A stretch of 64,000 nucleotides of DNA from contig CBDBCF010000001.1 of the NCBI GenBank assembly GCA_965202985.1, positions 800,001 to 864,000 of the forward strand, in the 5' to 3' direction. Below, in pieces: positions 20,061 to 27,252 of this stretch. Every line of letters begins with the position of its first letter. Within the stretch, counting starts at the first letter, position 1. The notes beneath the pieces are model-generated. The model saw only the letters and a program-made list of their open reading frames with translations. It was not told where the DNA came from and made no database searches. The translations under genes and the position numbers were made by a program. The stretch comes from Longimicrobiales bacterium. Lineage in GTDB: Bacteria; Gemmatimonadota; Gemmatimonadetes; Longimicrobiales; Gaopeijiaceae.

Positions 20061-21089
20061 CTAACCCCGCCGCCGGGCCGCCGGCAATCCCTCCACGAAC
20101 TCCACCATCCGCGCTTGCTCGTCCTCGTCCGGCATCCTGCCATGGCCCGCGCCGAGGTTGTCGATCATGTGCCTGGGGTTGCTGGTGGCCGGCGTCACCA
20201 CGGTCACGGCGGGGTGGGCCGCCGCAAACTTCAGGAAGAAGCGCGCCCACGAGTCCGCCCCGAACTCCGTCGCCCACTCGGGCACCGGACGGTCGCCCGC
20301 CCGCTGGAAGAGCCGCGTTCGCCCGAACGGCACGTAGACCAGCACGCCGATCTCGCGCTCCATGGCCAGCGGCAGGATCTCGTCCGCCGCGCTGGTGTTG
20401 TCCACGGCGTAGTCGATGCCGATGAAGTCCAGCGGGTAGTCCCGCATGGCCTGCATCAGGGCTCCGTACTGGCGCTTGCTCGTGGAGGTGATCCCGATGT
20501 AGCGGATTCGCCCCTCGGCCTTGAGCCCTTCCAAGATGCCGACCTGCGTGGGCGGGTCGCCCAGGTTGTGGACCTGGATCAGGTCGATCACGTCCGTGCC
20601 GAAGTGCTCGAAGGACCGCTCGATCTGCGCCCGCGCTCGGTCCGGGTCGGCAGCGCCGCCGCCGCGGCCCGCCACGTTCACCTTGGTTGCCCAGAAGATG
20701 CGGTCGGTCATGCCCAGCTCTCGGGCTATGGAACCGGCCACGGCCTCCGAGTCGCCGTAGCTGGGCGCCGTGTCGAAGACGGTGGCGCCGTTGTCCACGA
20801 ACACGCGGATCACCTCGCTCAAGGCCTCGGTGTCGCCGCTCCCCGCCATCCGACGGAAGGTGGCCGAGCTCCCCAGGCCGATGATCGGCAGCTGCTCGCC
20901 CGTCGAGGGCACGGCCCGCGTGGCCATCTGCTGCGCCCACGAGGACGCGGCGCCGGACGAAGCCGCACCCTTGGAGGCGGTCCCCGCACCGGTCAGGCCG
21001 TCCAGGCCTCGGAGCGCGCGAGGGTGAAACGAAAGGGCCGCACCGGCGGCGGCCGCGGCGGTGCGAAGCCAGTCTCGTCGAGTTGCCAT
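20061..21089 (-). CDS. Aldo/keto reductase with Tat signal
   Basis: 'MATRRDWL'; 'FDTAPSYG', 'ATKV', 'IDLIQVHN', 'GRIRYIGI'. Confidence 0.92.
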   Translation of the reverse strand: MATRRDWLRTAAAAAGAALSFHPRALRGLDGLTGAGTASKGAASSGAASSWAQQMATRAVPSTGEQLPIIGLGSSATFRRMAGSGDTEALSEVIRVFVDNGATVFDTAPSYGDSEAVAGSIARELGMTDRIFWATKVNVAGRGGGAADPDRARAQIERSFEHFGTDVIDLIQVHNLGDPPTQVGILEGLKAEGRIRYIGITSTSKRQYGALMQAMRDYPLDFIGIDYAVDNTSAADEILPLAMEREIGVLVYVPFGRTRLFQRAGDRPVPEWATEFGADSWARFFLKFAAAHPAVTVVTPATSNPRHMIDNLGAGHGRMPDEDEQARMVEFVEGLPAARRRG

Positions 21090-21237
21090 GCCGTCTTCCA
21101 GTCTGTCCTTTGGGTGGCCGTTGTTTCGGGGCAACGCCCCCTTGCGCACGCCAAAGTGGTTCGTCCGCCGAGGCAAGGCAACCCTGCTCGCCGTCCCAGT
21201 GCGAGCCCGGCGGCCGGGCGACGGCGTCCGGGCCCGG

Positions 21238-21653
21238 CTACGGGCGCGGTTCGATCCAGCTCCCGTAGAAGTTGGCCCAGGATACCTGCGACTCCGGGAT
21301 CGTCACTTCCTGGCTTCGGACGTGCATGACCACGCCTTCGGGCACGGCGTTCGCCGGCACTTCCACGGTATAGCTCCAGCCGGCGCGCAGGTTCACGAAC
21401 CGGTACCGACCGGAACCGTTGGTCCGCACCGGGTCCACGGTGCACCGCTCCTTGTCGCTCGCGCCCGGCGCGGCCGACGGATGCCGGCAGCCGCTGGTCA
21501 CCGACACTTGCACGCCGCTCATCGGCTTGCTGCCGACGACGACGTAGCCGGTGATCGCCCGATGTCGCCCGGCGGATCCGTGGGACTGGTGCACGCGGCC
21601 AGTGCGGCCGCGACCAGCCCGGTGAAGGAAAGTGCCTTGATGATCGTCTTCAT
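21238..21653 (-). pseudogene. Frameshifted lipoprotein with carboxypeptidase-regulatory-like/Cna-B-like beta-sandwich
   Basis: Signal plus lipobox 'MKTIIKALSFTGLVAAALAAC' in one frame; 'AITGYVVVGSKPMSGVQVSV...TNGSGRYRFVNL' continues in another; one extra G near 21558-21560 would join them. Confidence 0.7.
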
Positions 21654-21721
21654 TGCGTGGACGCGCTCCTGTGTTCGATTGGCCCCGGCCTGGTGGACGA
21701 GGCCCCCGGCAAGGGGCGGCC

Positions 21722-21798
21722 AAGCTAGCCGGGGGGTGCGACACGCTTCGGACGCGCTCCACGGGGTCGATCGGGACTGTCTCACCCCCCCGTTATTC
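21722..21798. promoter_or_regulatory. Divergent PafBC-type promoter pair
   Basis: Minus strand TGTCGC-N10-TAGCTT (21743-21722); plus strand TGTCTC-N9-TATTCT (21778-21798); 12/13 inverted repeat. Confidence 0.6.
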
Positions 21799-21850
21799 TG
21801 TGGCGGTTTTCGCCATGCATCCGCAGCAGAACGCACGGAGTCGGTCGCAA

Positions 21851-22981
21851 ATGACGGTTCAACCCACGAAGCTTCAGCGCTGGATCGACTTGGTCGCCTA
21901 CTTGGCCAAACGGAGCTTTCCGGTCGAGAAGGCGGACATTTGGAAGAACGTTCCGGCCTACGCGCGCGGCTTGGACGGCACGACCCGTGAGAAGGCCGCC
22001 GTTCGTCGCACCTTCGAGCGCGACAAGGACGAACTGCGTTCCATGGGCGTTCCCATCGAGTCCGTGCCCCACAAGACGGTCTTCGGCATCGAGGAGGTGA
22101 CGGCGTATCGGCTGGCACCCGGCTTCCGGCTTCCGGTCCTTCGGCTGATCAGCGGCGACGACGGTTCCGTCGGCGGCGAACGCCCGCAAACGCGCCGTGC
22201 CCGCCACGACCTGTTCTTCGGGATGTCCAGGGAGGAGGCGGACGCGGCCCTGCGGGGCCTCAAGGAGCTGGCCACATTGCCGGCCTTTCCCTGGGCCGCC
22301 GCCGCCGAGTCCGCCTTTCGCAAGCTGGCCCCGGACCTGGAGCCCGCGGTGCCCGCAGGCACGCCGGTGCTCTACGCGCCCGACCCGGAGGCCGAGGCCA
22401 CGGCCAAGTCGCTGGGCCGACTGTCCACCGCGCTTCGCCGCAGAAAACGAGCGACCTTCAAGTACCGCGGGATGAACCGCGCTGAGGAGACCGACCGTCG
22501 CGTGCGCCCCTACGGACTCCTCTTCGAGCACGGACGCTGGTACCTGCTGGGGCACGACGAAGACCGCGACGACCTCCGGGTATTTCGGATTGGGCGCATG
22601 AGCCGCGTCGCCGCCAACGCCAAGTCGCCGGGAAAACCGGACTTCCGCATTCCCGCCGACTTCGACCTGCGCGACTACTCCGGTCGCAAGGCTTGGGAGA
22701 TGGGGGACGCCGAGACTGAACCGGAGGACGCCGACGTGCTGTTCAGCTTTCCGCGATCCGCGTGGGCGGAGCGGAACGGGCTGGGAGAGCTGCTGGAAGC
22801 AAGATCGTGCGGCGCCCAAGTCCGACGCTTCCGAGTTCGCAACCGAAATTCGTTTCTGCGCTGGGTCCTGAGTCTCTTGGGAGAAGCTCGAATCGTGGCG
22901 CCGGTGGGCACGCGCGAGGAGTTCCGCGAAATGGCCCAGTCGGTTTTGAGCATCTACGAAGGAGGGCGTGGCGATGAGTGA
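21851..22981 (+). CDS. WYL-domain transcriptional regulator (PafB-like)
   Basis: 'RRTFERDKDELRSMGVPI' HTH; 'RRVRPYGL..EHGRWYLLGHD..R..LRVFRIGRM'. Confidence 0.92.
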   Translation: MTVQPTKLQRWIDLVAYLAKRSFPVEKADIWKNVPAYARGLDGTTREKAAVRRTFERDKDELRSMGVPIESVPHKTVFGIEEVTAYRLAPGFRLPVLRLISGDDGSVGGERPQTRRARHDLFFGMSREEADAALRGLKELATLPAFPWAAAAESAFRKLAPDLEPAVPAGTPVLYAPDPEAEATAKSLGRLSTALRRRKRATFKYRGMNRAEETDRRVRPYGLLFEHGRWYLLGHDEDRDDLRVFRIGRMSRVAANAKSPGKPDFRIPADFDLRDYSGRKAWEMGDAETEPEDADVLFSFPRSAWAERNGLGELLEARSCGAQVRRFRVRNRNSFLRWVLSLLGEARIVAPVGTREEFREMAQSVLSIYEGGRGDE

Positions 22982-23984
22982 CGGCACCTCGGCACGCGAC
23001 CGCTTCGAGCGCTTGGCCCACGTCGTTTCCCGGTCGAGCCGGCCGGAGGGCGCGGATCTGGCTGGCCTGGCTCGCGACTTGGGCGCCACGGAAGAGCGGA
23101 TCCTGGAAGACCTGCGGGAGCTGACCACGCGCGACGAGTATCGACCGGGCGGTTGGCCGGGTGACATCCGCGTGTTCGTCGAGGCGGGGCGGGTCCTGGT
23201 CGAGCACACCAGCTTCATGGAGCGGCCGTTTCGACTGACGAACCGCGAGACCGTCTGTCTGGCGCTGGCGCTCAGCGGCATCATGACGGCTCCGACCAGC
23301 GACGACCCCGAGCGCGGCGGCGACGGCAGCCAGTCTACCGGTTGGGACTCCTTCCTGCGCCGCGCGGAGCAGCAGCTAGGCCAGGACGCGGCGGTCGAGG
23401 CCGCGCCCAACTTGGCGATCCCCAACCGAACCCACGAGGAGCGGAGCATCCGCGCAACCTTGAAGGCTGCCGCCTACGAGCGCCGCCCCTGCGCGATCCG
23501 CTACTTGAAGCCCGGCGCCCAAGAGCCTTCGGACCGCGTGATCCACCCGTATCTGGTGCTCTATTCCGAGGAGACGTGGTACGCGGTGGCCTACTGCACC
23601 GACAGCGACGAGGTGCGGGTCTTTCGGCTCGACCGGACGCTGTCGGCCGAACACCGCGAAGGCGTCTTCGAAGTGCCCGACCCCTTCGACGCCGATGCGC
23701 TTGCCCAGTCGGGTCCCGAAGGCTGGATGCTCGCGTCCGCCGGCGAAGAGGCCCTGGTGCGCTATTCGCGCAAGCTTGCCCCCTGGGCCAGGGAACGCGC
23801 GTCATACCGCAGCCAGTCCTTGAAAGAGCACGACGACGGAAGCGTCACCGTGCGGCACCGCGTCGTGGACCCCTTGTGGCTTGCGACCCACGTCCTGCTG
23901 TACGGCGTCCACGCCGAAGTGCTCAAGCCCCAGAGCCTGCGCGACTTGGTGGCCGGCACGGTCCGCGAGATCGCGACTGCTTAA
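22974..23984 (+). CDS. WYL-domain transcriptional regulator (PafC-like)
   Basis: N-terminal HTH, 'RPFRLT..E', 'RVIHPY...WYAVAYC...VRVFRLDR'; overlaps the PafB-like stop. Confidence 0.9.
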   Translation: MSDGTSARDRFERLAHVVSRSSRPEGADLAGLARDLGATEERILEDLRELTTRDEYRPGGWPGDIRVFVEAGRVLVEHTSFMERPFRLTNRETVCLALALSGIMTAPTSDDPERGGDGSQSTGWDSFLRRAEQQLGQDAAVEAAPNLAIPNRTHEERSIRATLKAAAYERRPCAIRYLKPGAQEPSDRVIHPYLVLYSEETWYAVAYCTDSDEVRVFRLDRTLSAEHREGVFEVPDPFDADALAQSGPEGWMLASAGEEALVRYSRKLAPWARERASYRSQSLKEHDDGSVTVRHRVVDPLWLATHVLLYGVHAEVLKPQSLRDLVAGTVREIATA

Positions 23985-24023
23985 GGGCGGCGACTCGACC
24001 GTCGTCGGCGCCTGGGCTCAAGC

Positions 24024-24844
24024 CTATGCGCGCGGCGTCGCGCCCGACAACCGTTGCCGGTATCGATCAAGGTCGTCCGTAGTGACGGATTCGGGCGACA
24101 TCAGCCGATAGTGCCTCTCGGCGACGATCCCGATGTCGCCTCCGCATTCCTCGAATTCGAACATGGCAATCCGCCCGTCCGCCATGAACTGCGTCCCGAC
24201 AGGCCGGCAGACAAGCGAGGGCATCTTGTCCGCACAGAGGGCCATGTCTTGCTCGATTTGGACTCGACTCAACCTGTCGCTGTCGCTTTTGGCCTGCACG
24301 GGGATCACATAGTGGCAACCTATCTTGTCCACGCCCACGTACACCTCGTCCGTATCGACTTGCCCGAGACCGGCCACGGTCGTACGCAGGTGATTCTGAA
24401 GCGACCAGCACGCGATTCCCAGGAAAACGTCGATCAGCCTGTTGTACCGGACACGGGCCAATACTGCTTGTTCGTCGCCGAACGCATACTTCTCGATAAG
24501 CCCTGGGGTCGAATCGGGAATCCGTGTGACCGATAGGTTTAGGTTGGGCGCCAATGGAGTGTCGGAGACCAATGCAAAGCGATACTTGGCCCGGCCAGCC
24601 GACCGAATGATCCACGTCTTCCCCTCCGGCGCGGAAGCCAGAACGCTGGAAGGCAGTTCGGCGCGATATCGGAAGCTGTACAGCACGTCGCCCAGGTTCT
24701 TCGGCTCTTCGGCAAGGCTATGTCCAGTTGGCGCGCAGATTTCACTAGGTCTTCCCGCTCGAAGTCCACCGCGGTCGCGCCTGGCGCGTGCTTGTCCGAA
24801 AACACGGCTTCGATGATGGCGGCGTAGCGGCTCGCGGCCGTCAT
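24024..24844 (-). pseudogene. Putative restriction endonuclease frameshifted by an 8-bp tandem duplication
   Basis: ATG 24844 overlaps the MTase TGA; TCTTCGGC x2 at 24698-24713 splits 'LPK|NLGDVLYSFRYR'; 'DTDEVY...VQAK' PD-(D/E)xK-like motif. Confidence 0.8.
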
Positions 24845-26184
24845 TCGGCCCCTGTTTGTCCTGGCCACTCCAACAAGACCACTTCTTCTCGGAGCTGATC
24901 GCCGGTCGCCGTTGAAAGCCTGGTTCTGAACAGATCGATCCCTACGACCTTGTAGCCCAGGGACGACGCCACCTCGGCAAGGAGTTGCCCGGTGCGGATC
25001 ATGATTCGAAGGTAGGATGCTTGGTCGCCAACGACATACGCGAGCTTGGCGCCCGGCTTGAGCACGGGACGGAGAGACGCGAGGTGTCGTGTCATTCCTC
25101 CGAAGTACAGCTTCGTGACTCGCGAGTACATGCGCTCGAACCCCGACGTCTTGCCTAGGTCCACACGTCTGCGCTCGATTGCGTCCGCTATGTGCCTAAC
25201 CTTTGCATTGTCTTCCACTTCGCGGTCGTCGGTGTCCGCCTTGTACACGCCACGCGTGTTCGATCGAATCATGCCTTGCTTGAGTCGTCGCAACTCCACC
25301 TTGCTACGGATCAATCCGAGAACCACCGACTCCAACCGAGTTGTTCGGGTGTAGTCCTTTTCGTTTGGATACGGCGGGGACGTGATCACCGCGTCCACCG
25401 AGCCGGGCTCCAGTACGTCGTTCGCCGCTCGAGCGTCGGAACGAATCGCCCGTGCATCCACATTGGCGCGATCTGCAAGAGCGTGCAGGTCGTTGGCCAT
25501 GGCGACCATGCGCTCGAACCATGCATCGACCACGGTCGCGTCTTCCTTGACGCGTCCGACGCCAACCTCGGGACCGAACTTCAGGTTGCCGACGTCGCGG
25601 ACCAATGATGTGGCCAGGGCCAGTCTCCCGTAGGACTGCAATCGACTTGAACCGCGACGGTCGATTTCGCCCAGGAGCGCCAAGGTCTTGTGCAGGGGCA
25701 TCGGGCTGATGGAATTCTTCACCAGCAACGCCTCTTGTTCCGGTGGTAGATTCGCAAGCGGCACGCGCGGATTCTTGTTCTTGCCAAAGAGGGGGAGCTT
25801 CGCCAGGTCGTCGATTCCCTGCTTCCGCAGACGCGTGTGAGCTGCGGTCGCGGCTTCCTCGGCGTAGCGCAGAAGCTCGTCGCGGCGTCCTTGCCAATCC
25901 ACCTTGACCGAACTTGCAAAGTGCGCCATCGGGCTCGCCTCGACTCCGATGCTTCGAACCCCGAGCTTCCTGCATTCGACCAAGGTCGTGCCAGTGCCGC
26001 AGAAAGGGTCCAAGACCGTGGCGCGCGGCCCGACGTCGAACCGATCGAGGTAGTCGCGGACCAAGTGCGGCGGAAACGACAAGACGAACCGATACCAATC
26101 GTGCACGGCCCGGTCGCTTGGCCGGAGCTTGTTGGGATCGCCGCTGCTCGCGGGGACGCGGGCGCTAGTCGCTTGCGGCGCCAT
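24841..26184 (-). CDS. Amino DNA methyltransferase, probably N4-cytosine
   Basis: Motif I 'LDPFCGTGTT' before motif IV 'TSPPY'; visibly lower GC than flanks. Confidence 0.9.
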   Translation of the reverse strand: MAPQATSARVPASSGDPNKLRPSDRAVHDWYRFVLSFPPHLVRDYLDRFDVGPRATVLDPFCGTGTTLVECRKLGVRSIGVEASPMAHFASSVKVDWQGRRDELLRYAEEAATAAHTRLRKQGIDDLAKLPLFGKNKNPRVPLANLPPEQEALLVKNSISPMPLHKTLALLGEIDRRGSSRLQSYGRLALATSLVRDVGNLKFGPEVGVGRVKEDATVVDAWFERMVAMANDLHALADRANVDARAIRSDARAANDVLEPGSVDAVITSPPYPNEKDYTRTTRLESVVLGLIRSKVELRRLKQGMIRSNTRGVYKADTDDREVEDNAKVRHIADAIERRRVDLGKTSGFERMYSRVTKLYFGGMTRHLASLRPVLKPGAKLAYVVGDQASYLRIMIRTGQLLAEVASSLGYKVVGIDLFRTRLSTATGDQLREEVVLLEWPGQTGAE

Positions 26185-26199: not shown

Positions 26200-27252
26200 C
26201 TAGTTGAATTCGGTGCCGCCCTTTCTGACGCGGAAGGCGTCGCTCACCCACTTTGCGATCGGGCGCTCCACCGGATCGCCGACACTCCAAGAGGCGTCGC
26301 GAAGACGCATGACCACGCCCTCCCGGACGTGCTTGCCCCCGAAGGTCGTGGCGCCGGACACGTACTTCTCGGCGGCCGGCCAGTCCTCCACCACGCCCAA
26401 GACCGGGACCGTGCCGGGGCCGTCGTGGGCCGACGCGGTCGCTTCCACTTCCGGCCAAGGCAAATAGCGGGGGCCGATGCGCACGTCAAAGGCGCGAAAG
26501 CCGGGGTTCGGCAGGTCGTAGTGCAGGTCCTGCACGCCGCGACCGAAGATCTCGCCCAGGAGATAGTACGGCGTTCCCGTCTCCCGGTGATGCCCCAGGA
26601 CGGACATCAGCCATTCCTCCCAGACGCGGAACGCGCGCACGTACAGGTTGCCGGCGTTCTCTTCGACGAGGCGGAAGGCCAGGCCGCGCCCGCTCACGCC
26701 CTTGGAGCTCACGATGTCGCCGAAGTCGGGGTGCCAGCCCATGCAGCACCAAGTGCCGTGGAGCTTCTCGGTCACGACGACCGGCGTCTCGCTAGGCAGC
26801 AGCTCGGGGTAGCGAAGGATGCTGTCGATGTCGTACTTGACCGTCCCGCCCTGCGCCGAAAAGACCTGTCCGCCCATGCTCACCGGGATCGGCGGCTCGT
26901 ACTTCACCAAGCCAAGGAGCTCGGTTACGTCGTCGCCCTCGGCCAGGTCCGCGTCCGCCAGCCGGCCAATCCCCAGCGGGTGAAGCAGCCCGCCGGACAC
27001 GACGCCGCGCAGCTTGATCGCCTTGACCCGGTTTTTCTTCTTGCCGGCCAGCTTGCCGACCAGGCCCAGCAGTTCGAGCACGTCGTCGGGCACGATCGCG
27101 GCCTCCGGGATGTAGGCGGCCAAATCGCCGCTTCGGTACTTTCCCTTCGGGACGATCACGGTCACCTCGTTGACCTTGCCGATCTCCAGGATGTCCGCGT
27201 TGGGATGCTCTTCGATCCCGACCCGAACCACGTTCGCCGCAAACTCCGCCAT
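26200..27252 (-). CDS. ATP-dependent RNA ligase, DRB0094 family
   Basis: N-terminal 'HPNAD.LE' module; motif I 'TEKLHGT', 'GEIFGRGVQ', 'FRAFD', 'REGVV', 'IAK'; AGGAGG RBS. Confidence 0.9.
   Translation of the reverse strand: MAEFAANVVRVGIEEHPNADILEIGKVNEVTVIVPKGKYRSGDLAAYIPEAAIVPDDVLELLGLVGKLAGKKKNRVKAIKLRGVVSGGLLHPLGIGRLADADLAEGDDVTELLGLVKYEPPIPVSMGGQVFSAQGGTVKYDIDSILRYPELLPSETPVVVTEKLHGTWCCMGWHPDFGDIVSSKGVSGRGLAFRLVEENAGNLYVRAFRVWEEWLMSVLGHHRETGTPYYLLGEIFGRGVQDLHYDLPNPGFRAFDVRIGPRYLPWPEVEATASAHDGPGTVPVLGVVEDWPAAEKYVSGATTFGGKHVREGVVMRLRDASWSVGDPVERPIAKWVSDAFRVRKGGTEFN

Follow-up and report, generated by a model that had tools for sequence, protein, structure and literature searches.

Genes of the locus

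We analysed a window of 64,000 nucleotides from a Longimicrobiales bacterium, corresponding to positions G000:C1:800001-864000 of the host genome (G000; 3.86 Mb in 2 contigs, C1 and C2, 92% complete, about 68.5% GC), in which two coupled genes encode counterparts of PafB and PafC, the subunits of mycobacterial PafBC, and a small lipoprotein gene points away from them. An earlier note on this DNA had proposed that this pair and the lipoprotein gene are driven by mirror-image PafBC-type promoters; our analysis supports promoters of this type on both sides and points to a small predicted regulon. Coordinates without a contig name refer to the window.

The pafB counterpart (21851..22981, plus strand, with an alternative start at 21815) encodes 376 amino acids arranged as a winged helix-turn-helix (wHTH), a WYL and a WCX domain, and contains the helix RRTFERDKDELR. 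The pafC counterpart (22974..23984, plus strand) encodes 336 amino acids with the order HTH_PafC-WYL-WCX and overlaps pafB by 8 nt (ATG at 22974, stop at 22979-22981).

The first gene product has its best PDB sequence match in M. smegmatis PafB (E 7e-20) and the second in PafBC and PafC (E 3e-16 and 1e-15), so that two adjacent genes in the order pafB-pafC, each with the wHTH-WYL-WCX arrangement, resemble the two PafBC subunits best; the predicted model of the first product (mean predicted local distance difference test score, pLDDT, 80.8) also has the PafB chain 9fnd_X as its best Foldseek match. In mycobacterial PafB, helix residues R46 and R50 read a GTC triplet while K52 and R56 contact the backbone (PMC8635444), and these four residues (in RMFERDKNELR) align to RRTFERDKDELR, with no variation of FERDK across 19 aligned rows. 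The residues described as binding single-stranded DNA (ssDNA) in PafB, R181, Y196, R204, R208, R211 and R214 (PMC11804915), are R/Y/R/R/R/R in the host (6/6 kept) and five of the six are invariant among 19 orthologues; the PafC arginine pair R201 and R204 is kept as well. As judged from these matches and residues, the two WYL genes are counterparts of pafB and pafC, in agreement with the PafBC-like pair first suggested.

Among the best 80 of 579 loci, the closest named relatives belong to Gemmatimonadota, several of them to Longimicrobiales, with Acidobacteriota and Actinomycetota far behind; the genome is thus non-actinobacterial, as had been suspected, and has counterparts of both subunits. 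A pafB gene was detected in 26 of 60 relatives and in 40 of 150 genomes sampled across the phylum. No Pup ligase was found in the 92%-complete host genome, and an operon with a pafA/Pup-proteasome locus, the actinobacterial context, is not seen; the earlier note had already remarked that no Pup-proteasome genes are adjacent. The same genome holds two lexA genes and one recA.

The lipoprotein gene (21238..21654, minus strand) encodes 138 amino acids when intact, with the lipobox LAAC. In the window its signal peptide (MKTIIK...LAAC) and its body lie in different frames through a one-base frameshift near 21557. One extra base is present at 21557-21558 in contigs from runs X1 (which may be the window's own source), X3 and X7, X8 not covering the position, and an intact 138-residue protein with the lipobox LAAC is on record (P0001); for these reasons the frameshift is most likely an assembly error. 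A match of the lipoprotein to a carboxypeptidase-regulatory-like beta-sandwich lies below the Pfam cut-off and is echoed by Atlas. An orthologue with 46% identity is encoded in the same-genus genome G003, and similar divergent genes are present in G001 and G002. The runs that hold the locus are labelled as sponge or marine metagenome, or have coded names.

Predicted divergent promoters between pafB and the lipoprotein gene

The divergent intergenic region measures 196 nt from ATG 21654 to ATG 21851, one less than the 197 bp first given, and a sequence check of the window placed the two halves of the inverted pair described in the earlier note exactly where they had been reported, GGGGGGTGCGACA at 21731-21743 and TGTCTCACCCCCC at 21778-21790. 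Inverted pairs of 13 bp with at most one mismatch and a loop of 20-50 nt have a frequency of 0.014 per 200 bp in contig C1.

Each half belongs to a predicted PafBC-type promoter. The reverse promoter (21722..21743, minus strand) reads TGTCGC ACCCCCCGGC TAGCTT from 21743 to 21722, with the upstream element TGTCGC-ACCCC and a -10 element TAGCTT at 21727-21722 that ends 67 nt ahead of the lipoprotein ATG; its predicted start site is near 21715, and it is kept in the genomes G001-G003. The forward promoter (21778..21799, plus strand) reads TGTCTC ACCCCCCCGT TATTCT, with the upstream element TGTCTC-ACCCC and a -10 element TATTCT at 21794-21799 that ends 51 nt ahead of the pafB ATG at 21851, and its predicted start site is near 21806. 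Both spacers count N10; this had been read correctly on the lipoprotein side and miscounted as N9 on the WYL side, and the corrected value brings the forward promoter closer to PafBC geometry. No canonical sigma-70 promoter was found in 21000-24200. The direct repeat TTCG-N7-TTCG, which is probably the LexA box of the phylum (see below), is absent from the region between the divergent genes, and the proposed LexA independence of the pair's promoter region stands in this respect.

Comparison with relatives, which had been suggested as a check, showed that all three same-genus genomes (G001-G003) have retained the two sites together with a similar divergent lipoprotein gene, while the DNA between the sites has diverged; the neighbourhood of the pafBC/lipoprotein cassette in G000 is unlike that in the other genomes of the genus. 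Back-to-back sites were separated by gaps of 19, 34, 34, 34, 45, 72, 105, 117, 172 and 222 nt, one such pair lying between divergent cas7 and cas4-cas1 genes (G020), and most motif sites are single. Since the gaps vary from 19 to 222 nt, the mirror symmetry reflects two back-to-back promoters and not a palindromic operator: the two divergent promoters of the original proposal stand, and their symmetry is a by-product. Between the gaps of 34 nt and the gap of 45 nt there is a difference close to one turn of the helix, only a hint (n=4) of helical phasing.

A promoter motif that accompanies pafB

The motif shared by both promoters is TGTCACACCCC-N5-TA-N3-T, in the -26/-10 geometry of PafBC, for which the mycobacterial motif has been given as tGTCgg(N10)tA(N3)T (PMC8635444) and, in a second form, as tTGTCRgtg-8nt-TannnT (PMC5656591). 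Upstream regions were taken from 24 of the 27 pafB-positive genomes, G009, G020 and G032 being left out as their 5' end is missing. The loose pattern nGTC-N12-nA-N3-T occurred in 18 of these 24 regions (background 0.69 per kb per strand), and [TC]GTC-N12-nA-N3-T occurred within 300 nt upstream of pafB in 16 of 23 relatives; the spacer consensus was not imposed, and the spacer started with ACC in 11 of these 16 sites, giving TGTCACACCCC-N5-TA-N3-T.

Using a weight matrix trained only on sites of 20 relatives, with the host sites excluded, we found that the two sites of the window rank 3rd and 4th in the 3.86-Mb genome, at 24.1 and 20.1 bits. Above 17 bits there were 9 real sites against 1 in an order-4 Markov copy of the genome, which had none above 18 bits. 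When we considered the named loci for which 200 nt or more of upstream sequence were available, sites of 12 bits or more preceded pafB in 24 of 65 loci of the Gemmatimonadota group, against 0/77 in-gene and 1/78 reversed, and were spread over 14 of the 31 best-scoring and 10 of the 34 weaker pafB genes. The N10 spacer was present in 38 of these 65 loci, against 4-16 for the other spacers from N6 to N16 and 12 in-gene.

The strict pattern tracks pafB, being present in 16/26 pafB-positive against 3/34 pafB-negative relatives and in 11/40 against 6/110 genomes of the phylum sample. A -35 element of the form TTG[AC][AC] was seen at 1 of 117 strong sites, and at 7 of the 117 an ATG-started open reading frame begins 6-7 nt after the -10 element, as in leaderless starts; any other single offset in the range 1-10 gave 0-1 such frames. 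A bipartite GTC (-26)-N10-TA-N3-T promoter lacking a -35 element and linked to the regulator is what characterises PafBC, and the proposed assignment of both promoters to this type is upheld by their geometry and by the co-occurrence of the motif with pafB.

A genome scan with the loose pattern TGTC[GT]C-N-TA-N3-T, recommended in the earlier note, gave 15, 8, 9, 11 and 3 matches for N8 to N12 and no spacer preference; only the extended motif discriminates. We also rejected a G-run variant, TGTCRSRGGG-N6-TA-N3-T, which does not track pafB (4/26 vs 9/34; 10 matches in the control). Some G-run sites are found before typical targets, namely recA in G050, an sbcD-like gene in G030 and a lipoprotein gene in G038.

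Predicted regulon

In the host, the predicted targets are pafBC and the divergent lipoprotein gene, with their back-to-back sites, a second lipoprotein gene (C1:296912), whose site is also kept in G001, an N6-methylase-type gene (C1:867839) with a strong site, and an sbcD-sbcC pair (C1:395707) that is possibly leaderless and has a 19-bit site. The methylase site is kept in G001 too, where it is not independent evidence because that copy is 98% identical; at the methylase locus (G000:C1:864937-870600; L185), a partial duplicate lies upstream with a degenerate site (870516). The sbcD-sbcC pair is perhaps a member of the regulon in G000. It ends a four-gene run (G000:C1:391080-398948; L184), the two upstream genes of which look NurA- and HerA-like by eye, without Pfam match.

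Among the relatives, 29 of 31 strict sites were read: they precede pafB (3), genes for exported proteins or lipoproteins (5), VWA (4), ARPP-1 (3) and AddB-like (3) genes, RecB/RNase_H_2 nuclease genes (2), which we take to be TM0106-like, cas genes (3), including type I-G cas genes, and a methylase gene (1), or lie before unknown or distant genes (3) or inside genes (2). For the AddB-like targets, a PD-(D/E)XK domain was shown in two of three and the G009 protein is assigned by resemblance only; in G027 a UvrD-type gene comes next. Further candidate targets in the phylum sample are cas4-cas1, lipoproteins of the PEGA and Ig-like kinds and a phosphatase-ADP-ribosylglycohydrolase, several of its sites having no gene called by the simple gene caller. 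Homologues of VWA, ARPP-1, ligA and exonuclease genes in G000 are without sites (at most 2.6 bits), and no match to the AddB-like protein was obtained in G000 with two queries. The host also carries type I-G CRISPR genes (cas7, cas3 and cas4-cas1 homologues; G000:C2:305385-312955; L183). The weak site before its cas7 (C2:313019, 12 bits) is of the G-run type and was not counted as a target, since this variant does not track pafB.

The enrichment of the motif upstream of repair genes that the earlier note had looked for was not observed: no score above 3.5 bits was obtained for 13 core repair genes of G000, including recA, lexA, uvrA/B, ruvB, recG, mfd, mutS, dnaE and uvrD, and a PafBC-type site at recA occurs in 3 of 27 pafB-positive genomes, so that control of recA and the bulk of repair genes, as known for PafBC, is not seen. 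The direct repeat TTCG-N7-TTCG, on the other hand, stands before recA in 24 of the 27 pafB-positive Gemmatimonadota genomes (loci L232-L258; in-gene control 0). In G000 it precedes recA (C2:519724, minus strand) and, in three copies, lexA (C1:2500690, minus strand), with a near copy before a second dnaE; in this phylum it probably serves as the LexA box. We thus predict a small and lineage-dependent regulon, with core SOS genes mostly under a separate, probably LexA-type box. The three recA promoters with a PafBC-type site are those of L234 (G050), L258 (G044) and L240 (G129); two of them also carry TTCG-N7-TTCG, an arrangement that resembles the dual control of mycobacterial recA.

Next to the WYL pair, a DNA methylase gene and a gene for 220 amino acids without Pfam match (24024-26184, minus strand) converge on pafC and are probably a restriction-modification pair. 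They are followed by a gene for a DRB0094-family RNA ligase (26200-27252, minus strand; its TIGR02306 match exceeds the cut-off), which has none of the strong motif sites.

Proposed mechanism and alternative explanations

We consider it quite probable that the locus encodes an ssDNA-gated activator of the PafBC type that uses sigma adaptation, amplifies its own expression and serves a regulon leaning towards defence and the envelope. The pair probably activates its own operon along with the gene of a small surface lipoprotein; in relatives, its likely targets are defence and DNA-end-processing genes rather than recA. The identity of the proteins, their conserved residues, the motif with its spacing and conservation and its co-occurrence with pafB are given by the data above, and the mechanism is modelled on mycobacterial PafBC. 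By this analogy, ssDNA arising from damage, or from incoming phage or plasmid DNA, would bind the WYL domains; the PafB helix would read GTC at about -26, and the helix-turn-helix of PafC would prop up sigma region 4, so that RNA polymerase could fire at a -10 element lacking a -35. The two back-to-back copies of TGTCACACCCC-N5-TA-N3-T would thereby drive the pafBC operon and the divergent lipoprotein gene, and a positive-feedback loop is predicted because pafBC carries its own site.

Several observations weigh against this reading. Position D62 of PafC, a sigma contact in mycobacteria, is R or V here, depending on a gap, and the column contains Q16, R6, S6 and E4 among 39 orthologues. In the one host sigma mapped, SigA residues R416/R442/S446 correspond to Y/R/D, only R442 being kept, if the equal-length match to 5tw1_F is ungapped as assumed; and the host encodes three short RpoD-like sigmas (283-297 amino acids; G000:C1:1320449-1321309, C1:1342688-1343581 and C2:799827-800678; L180-L182), each a candidate partner of PafBC. 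Such a trio is present in most Longimicrobiales relatives. An upstream site of 12 bits or more was found at 1/9 pafB genes of Acidobacteriota and 0/4 of Actinomycetota, and some of the named loci come from the same genomes as the matrix training set. The strict pattern is missing in 10/26 and 29/40 of the pafB-positive genomes, the significance of its co-occurrence with pafB is overstated by the Fisher values because kin are not independent, and many matches adjoin pafBC itself. When 12 motif-bearing pafB-negative genomes (9 by the strict pattern, 3 by the G-run variant) were searched again, 8 were without a trace of pafB or pafC and 4 had fragments. Finally, TTGACC is a candidate -35 element at the site before sbcD.

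It would be possible, although we find it improbable, that a CapW/BrxR-like repressor occupies the sites between the divergent promoters until ssDNA releases it. CapW and BrxR, as far as they have been described, typically combine autoregulation with a divergent layout and defence-gene targets, both proteins are structural relatives of the WYL pair, and the changes at PafC D62 and at two sigma contacts would fit such a repressor. Palindromic operators are a feature of DriD, CapW and BrxR, with a fixed half-site spacing in CapW/BrxR; here, by contrast, there is no fixed palindrome and most sites are single, while the fixed N10 to the -10 element and the rarity of a -35 would leave little basal promoter to repress. 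The CapW/BrxR matches are moreover much weaker than those to PafB and PafC (E about 0.005 against 1e-15 to 1e-20).

An equally small chance is given to an alternative sigma, an RpoD-like paralogue or an extracytoplasmic function (ECF) sigma, that would read the motif directly, with pafBC merely one of its targets. The host has three RpoD-like sigmas to offer, and 8 genomes have sites and no detectable pafBC, some at typical targets (AddB-like and RecB-like genes in G027). The pafB-negative genomes are however mostly fragmented assemblies, 4 of the 12 holding pafB/pafC remnants; the motif tracks pafB, whereas RpoD-like sigmas occur in nearly all relatives, and both the GTC-N12-A geometry and the reading residues of PafB match PafBC exactly. 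ECF41 promoters are described as TGTCACA-n16-CGTC (PMC3426412), and their -35 heptamer TGTCACA is common to both systems; a CGTC -10 element about 16 nt on was found at 0 of 117 sites, where the partner element is TA-N3-T at N10, which rules out an ECF41 promoter.

That the inverted pair is an RNA or DNA hairpin, or a chance match of G/C runs, with no promoter role is very improbable: its arms can pair in a predicted fold, but nothing sets this fold apart (z -1.7, equalled by 10 of 200 shuffled sequences), lone sites stand at the fixed N10 ahead of many genes, and four genomes of the genus keep the sites while the intervening DNA changes.

Within the PafBC-type activator that we prefer, a further-reaching and doubtful extension is a portable sigma adaptation, in which the sigma contact would have been rebuilt (a possible charge swap of PafC D62->R/Q against sigma S446->D). 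The result might be a self-amplifying foreign-DNA alarm that switches on CRISPR, restriction, AddAB-like and VWA/ARPP-1 genes together with a changing set of small surface lipoproteins, which might hide phage receptors or act as decoys for them, and its minimal mobile cassette in this lineage might consist of the sensor and one lipoprotein on helically phased back-to-back promoters (gaps 34, 34, 34, 45 nt).

Comparison with known systems

In the structures and studies of PafBC of M. smegmatis and M. tuberculosis and of the fused PafBC of Arthrobacter aurescens (PDB 7P5X, 9FND, 6SJ9; PMC8635444, PMC11804915, PMC5656591), we find the same pafB-pafC order with wHTH-WYL-WCX in both subunits, the same DNA-reading and ssDNA residues in PafB, and the same promoter layout, in which GTC at -26 is followed after N10 by TA-N3-T and a -35 is lacking. 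Unlike mycobacterial PafBC, the present pair resides in a Gemmatimonadota host in which no pafA/Pup ligase was found, its upstream element is TGTCACACCCC and not tGTCgg or tTGTCRgtg, and the equivalents of PafC D62 and SigA R416/S446 are changed. The mycobacterial regulon is described as about 150 genes including recA, whereas the one predicted here is small and made up of defence, end-processing and exported-protein genes, with recA in 3/27. The site at the pair's own promoter is a further difference, since in mycobacteria the amount of PafBC stays constant upon DNA damage according to the accounts cited (PMC5656591, PMC7617703).

DdaA of Moraxellaceae is a WYL activator that links DNA damage to anti-phage genes, among them restriction-modification and CRISPR-Cas (PMC12392091), and the present system would resemble it in this; DdaA is however presented as one WYL protein that has taken the place of SOS, whereas the host studied here has two lexA genes and a probable LexA box at recA in addition to its PafB/PafC pair. 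Other WYL proteins described as ssDNA sensors with small regulons are DriD of Caulobacter, CapW and BrxR, the latter two adjoining defence systems. DriD is a homodimer and CapW a repressor, by contrast with the two distinct subunits found here and with sites that are single, not palindromic, and set at a constant spacing from the -10 element.

WYL-WCX proteins occur in many phyla (PMC6789036, PMC7617703). Sigma adaptation is presented as shown only for mycobacterial PafBC, its authors suggesting that it is possibly widespread in mycobacteria and other actinobacteria (PMC8635444), and the degree of conservation of PafBC is raised as a question in a review (PMC7617703). We found no literature report of a PafBC-type regulon in Gemmatimonadota or outside Actinobacteria; subscription papers and supplements, which lay outside the search, may list orthologues. 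With a cognate promoter, predicted self-activation, a defence-leaning regulon and differing sigma-4 residues in a diderm phylum, the conservation of PafBC becomes testable, as do the questions of which sigma contacts are indispensable and whether the system first served DNA repair or the sensing of foreign DNA. The promoter motif can also be used to search this little-studied phylum for defence or envelope genes that are not yet known. What this locus contributes is a conserved cassette with back-to-back promoters, targets that are lipoproteins, counts of co-occurrence across the phylum and a sharing of tasks with a probable LexA box.

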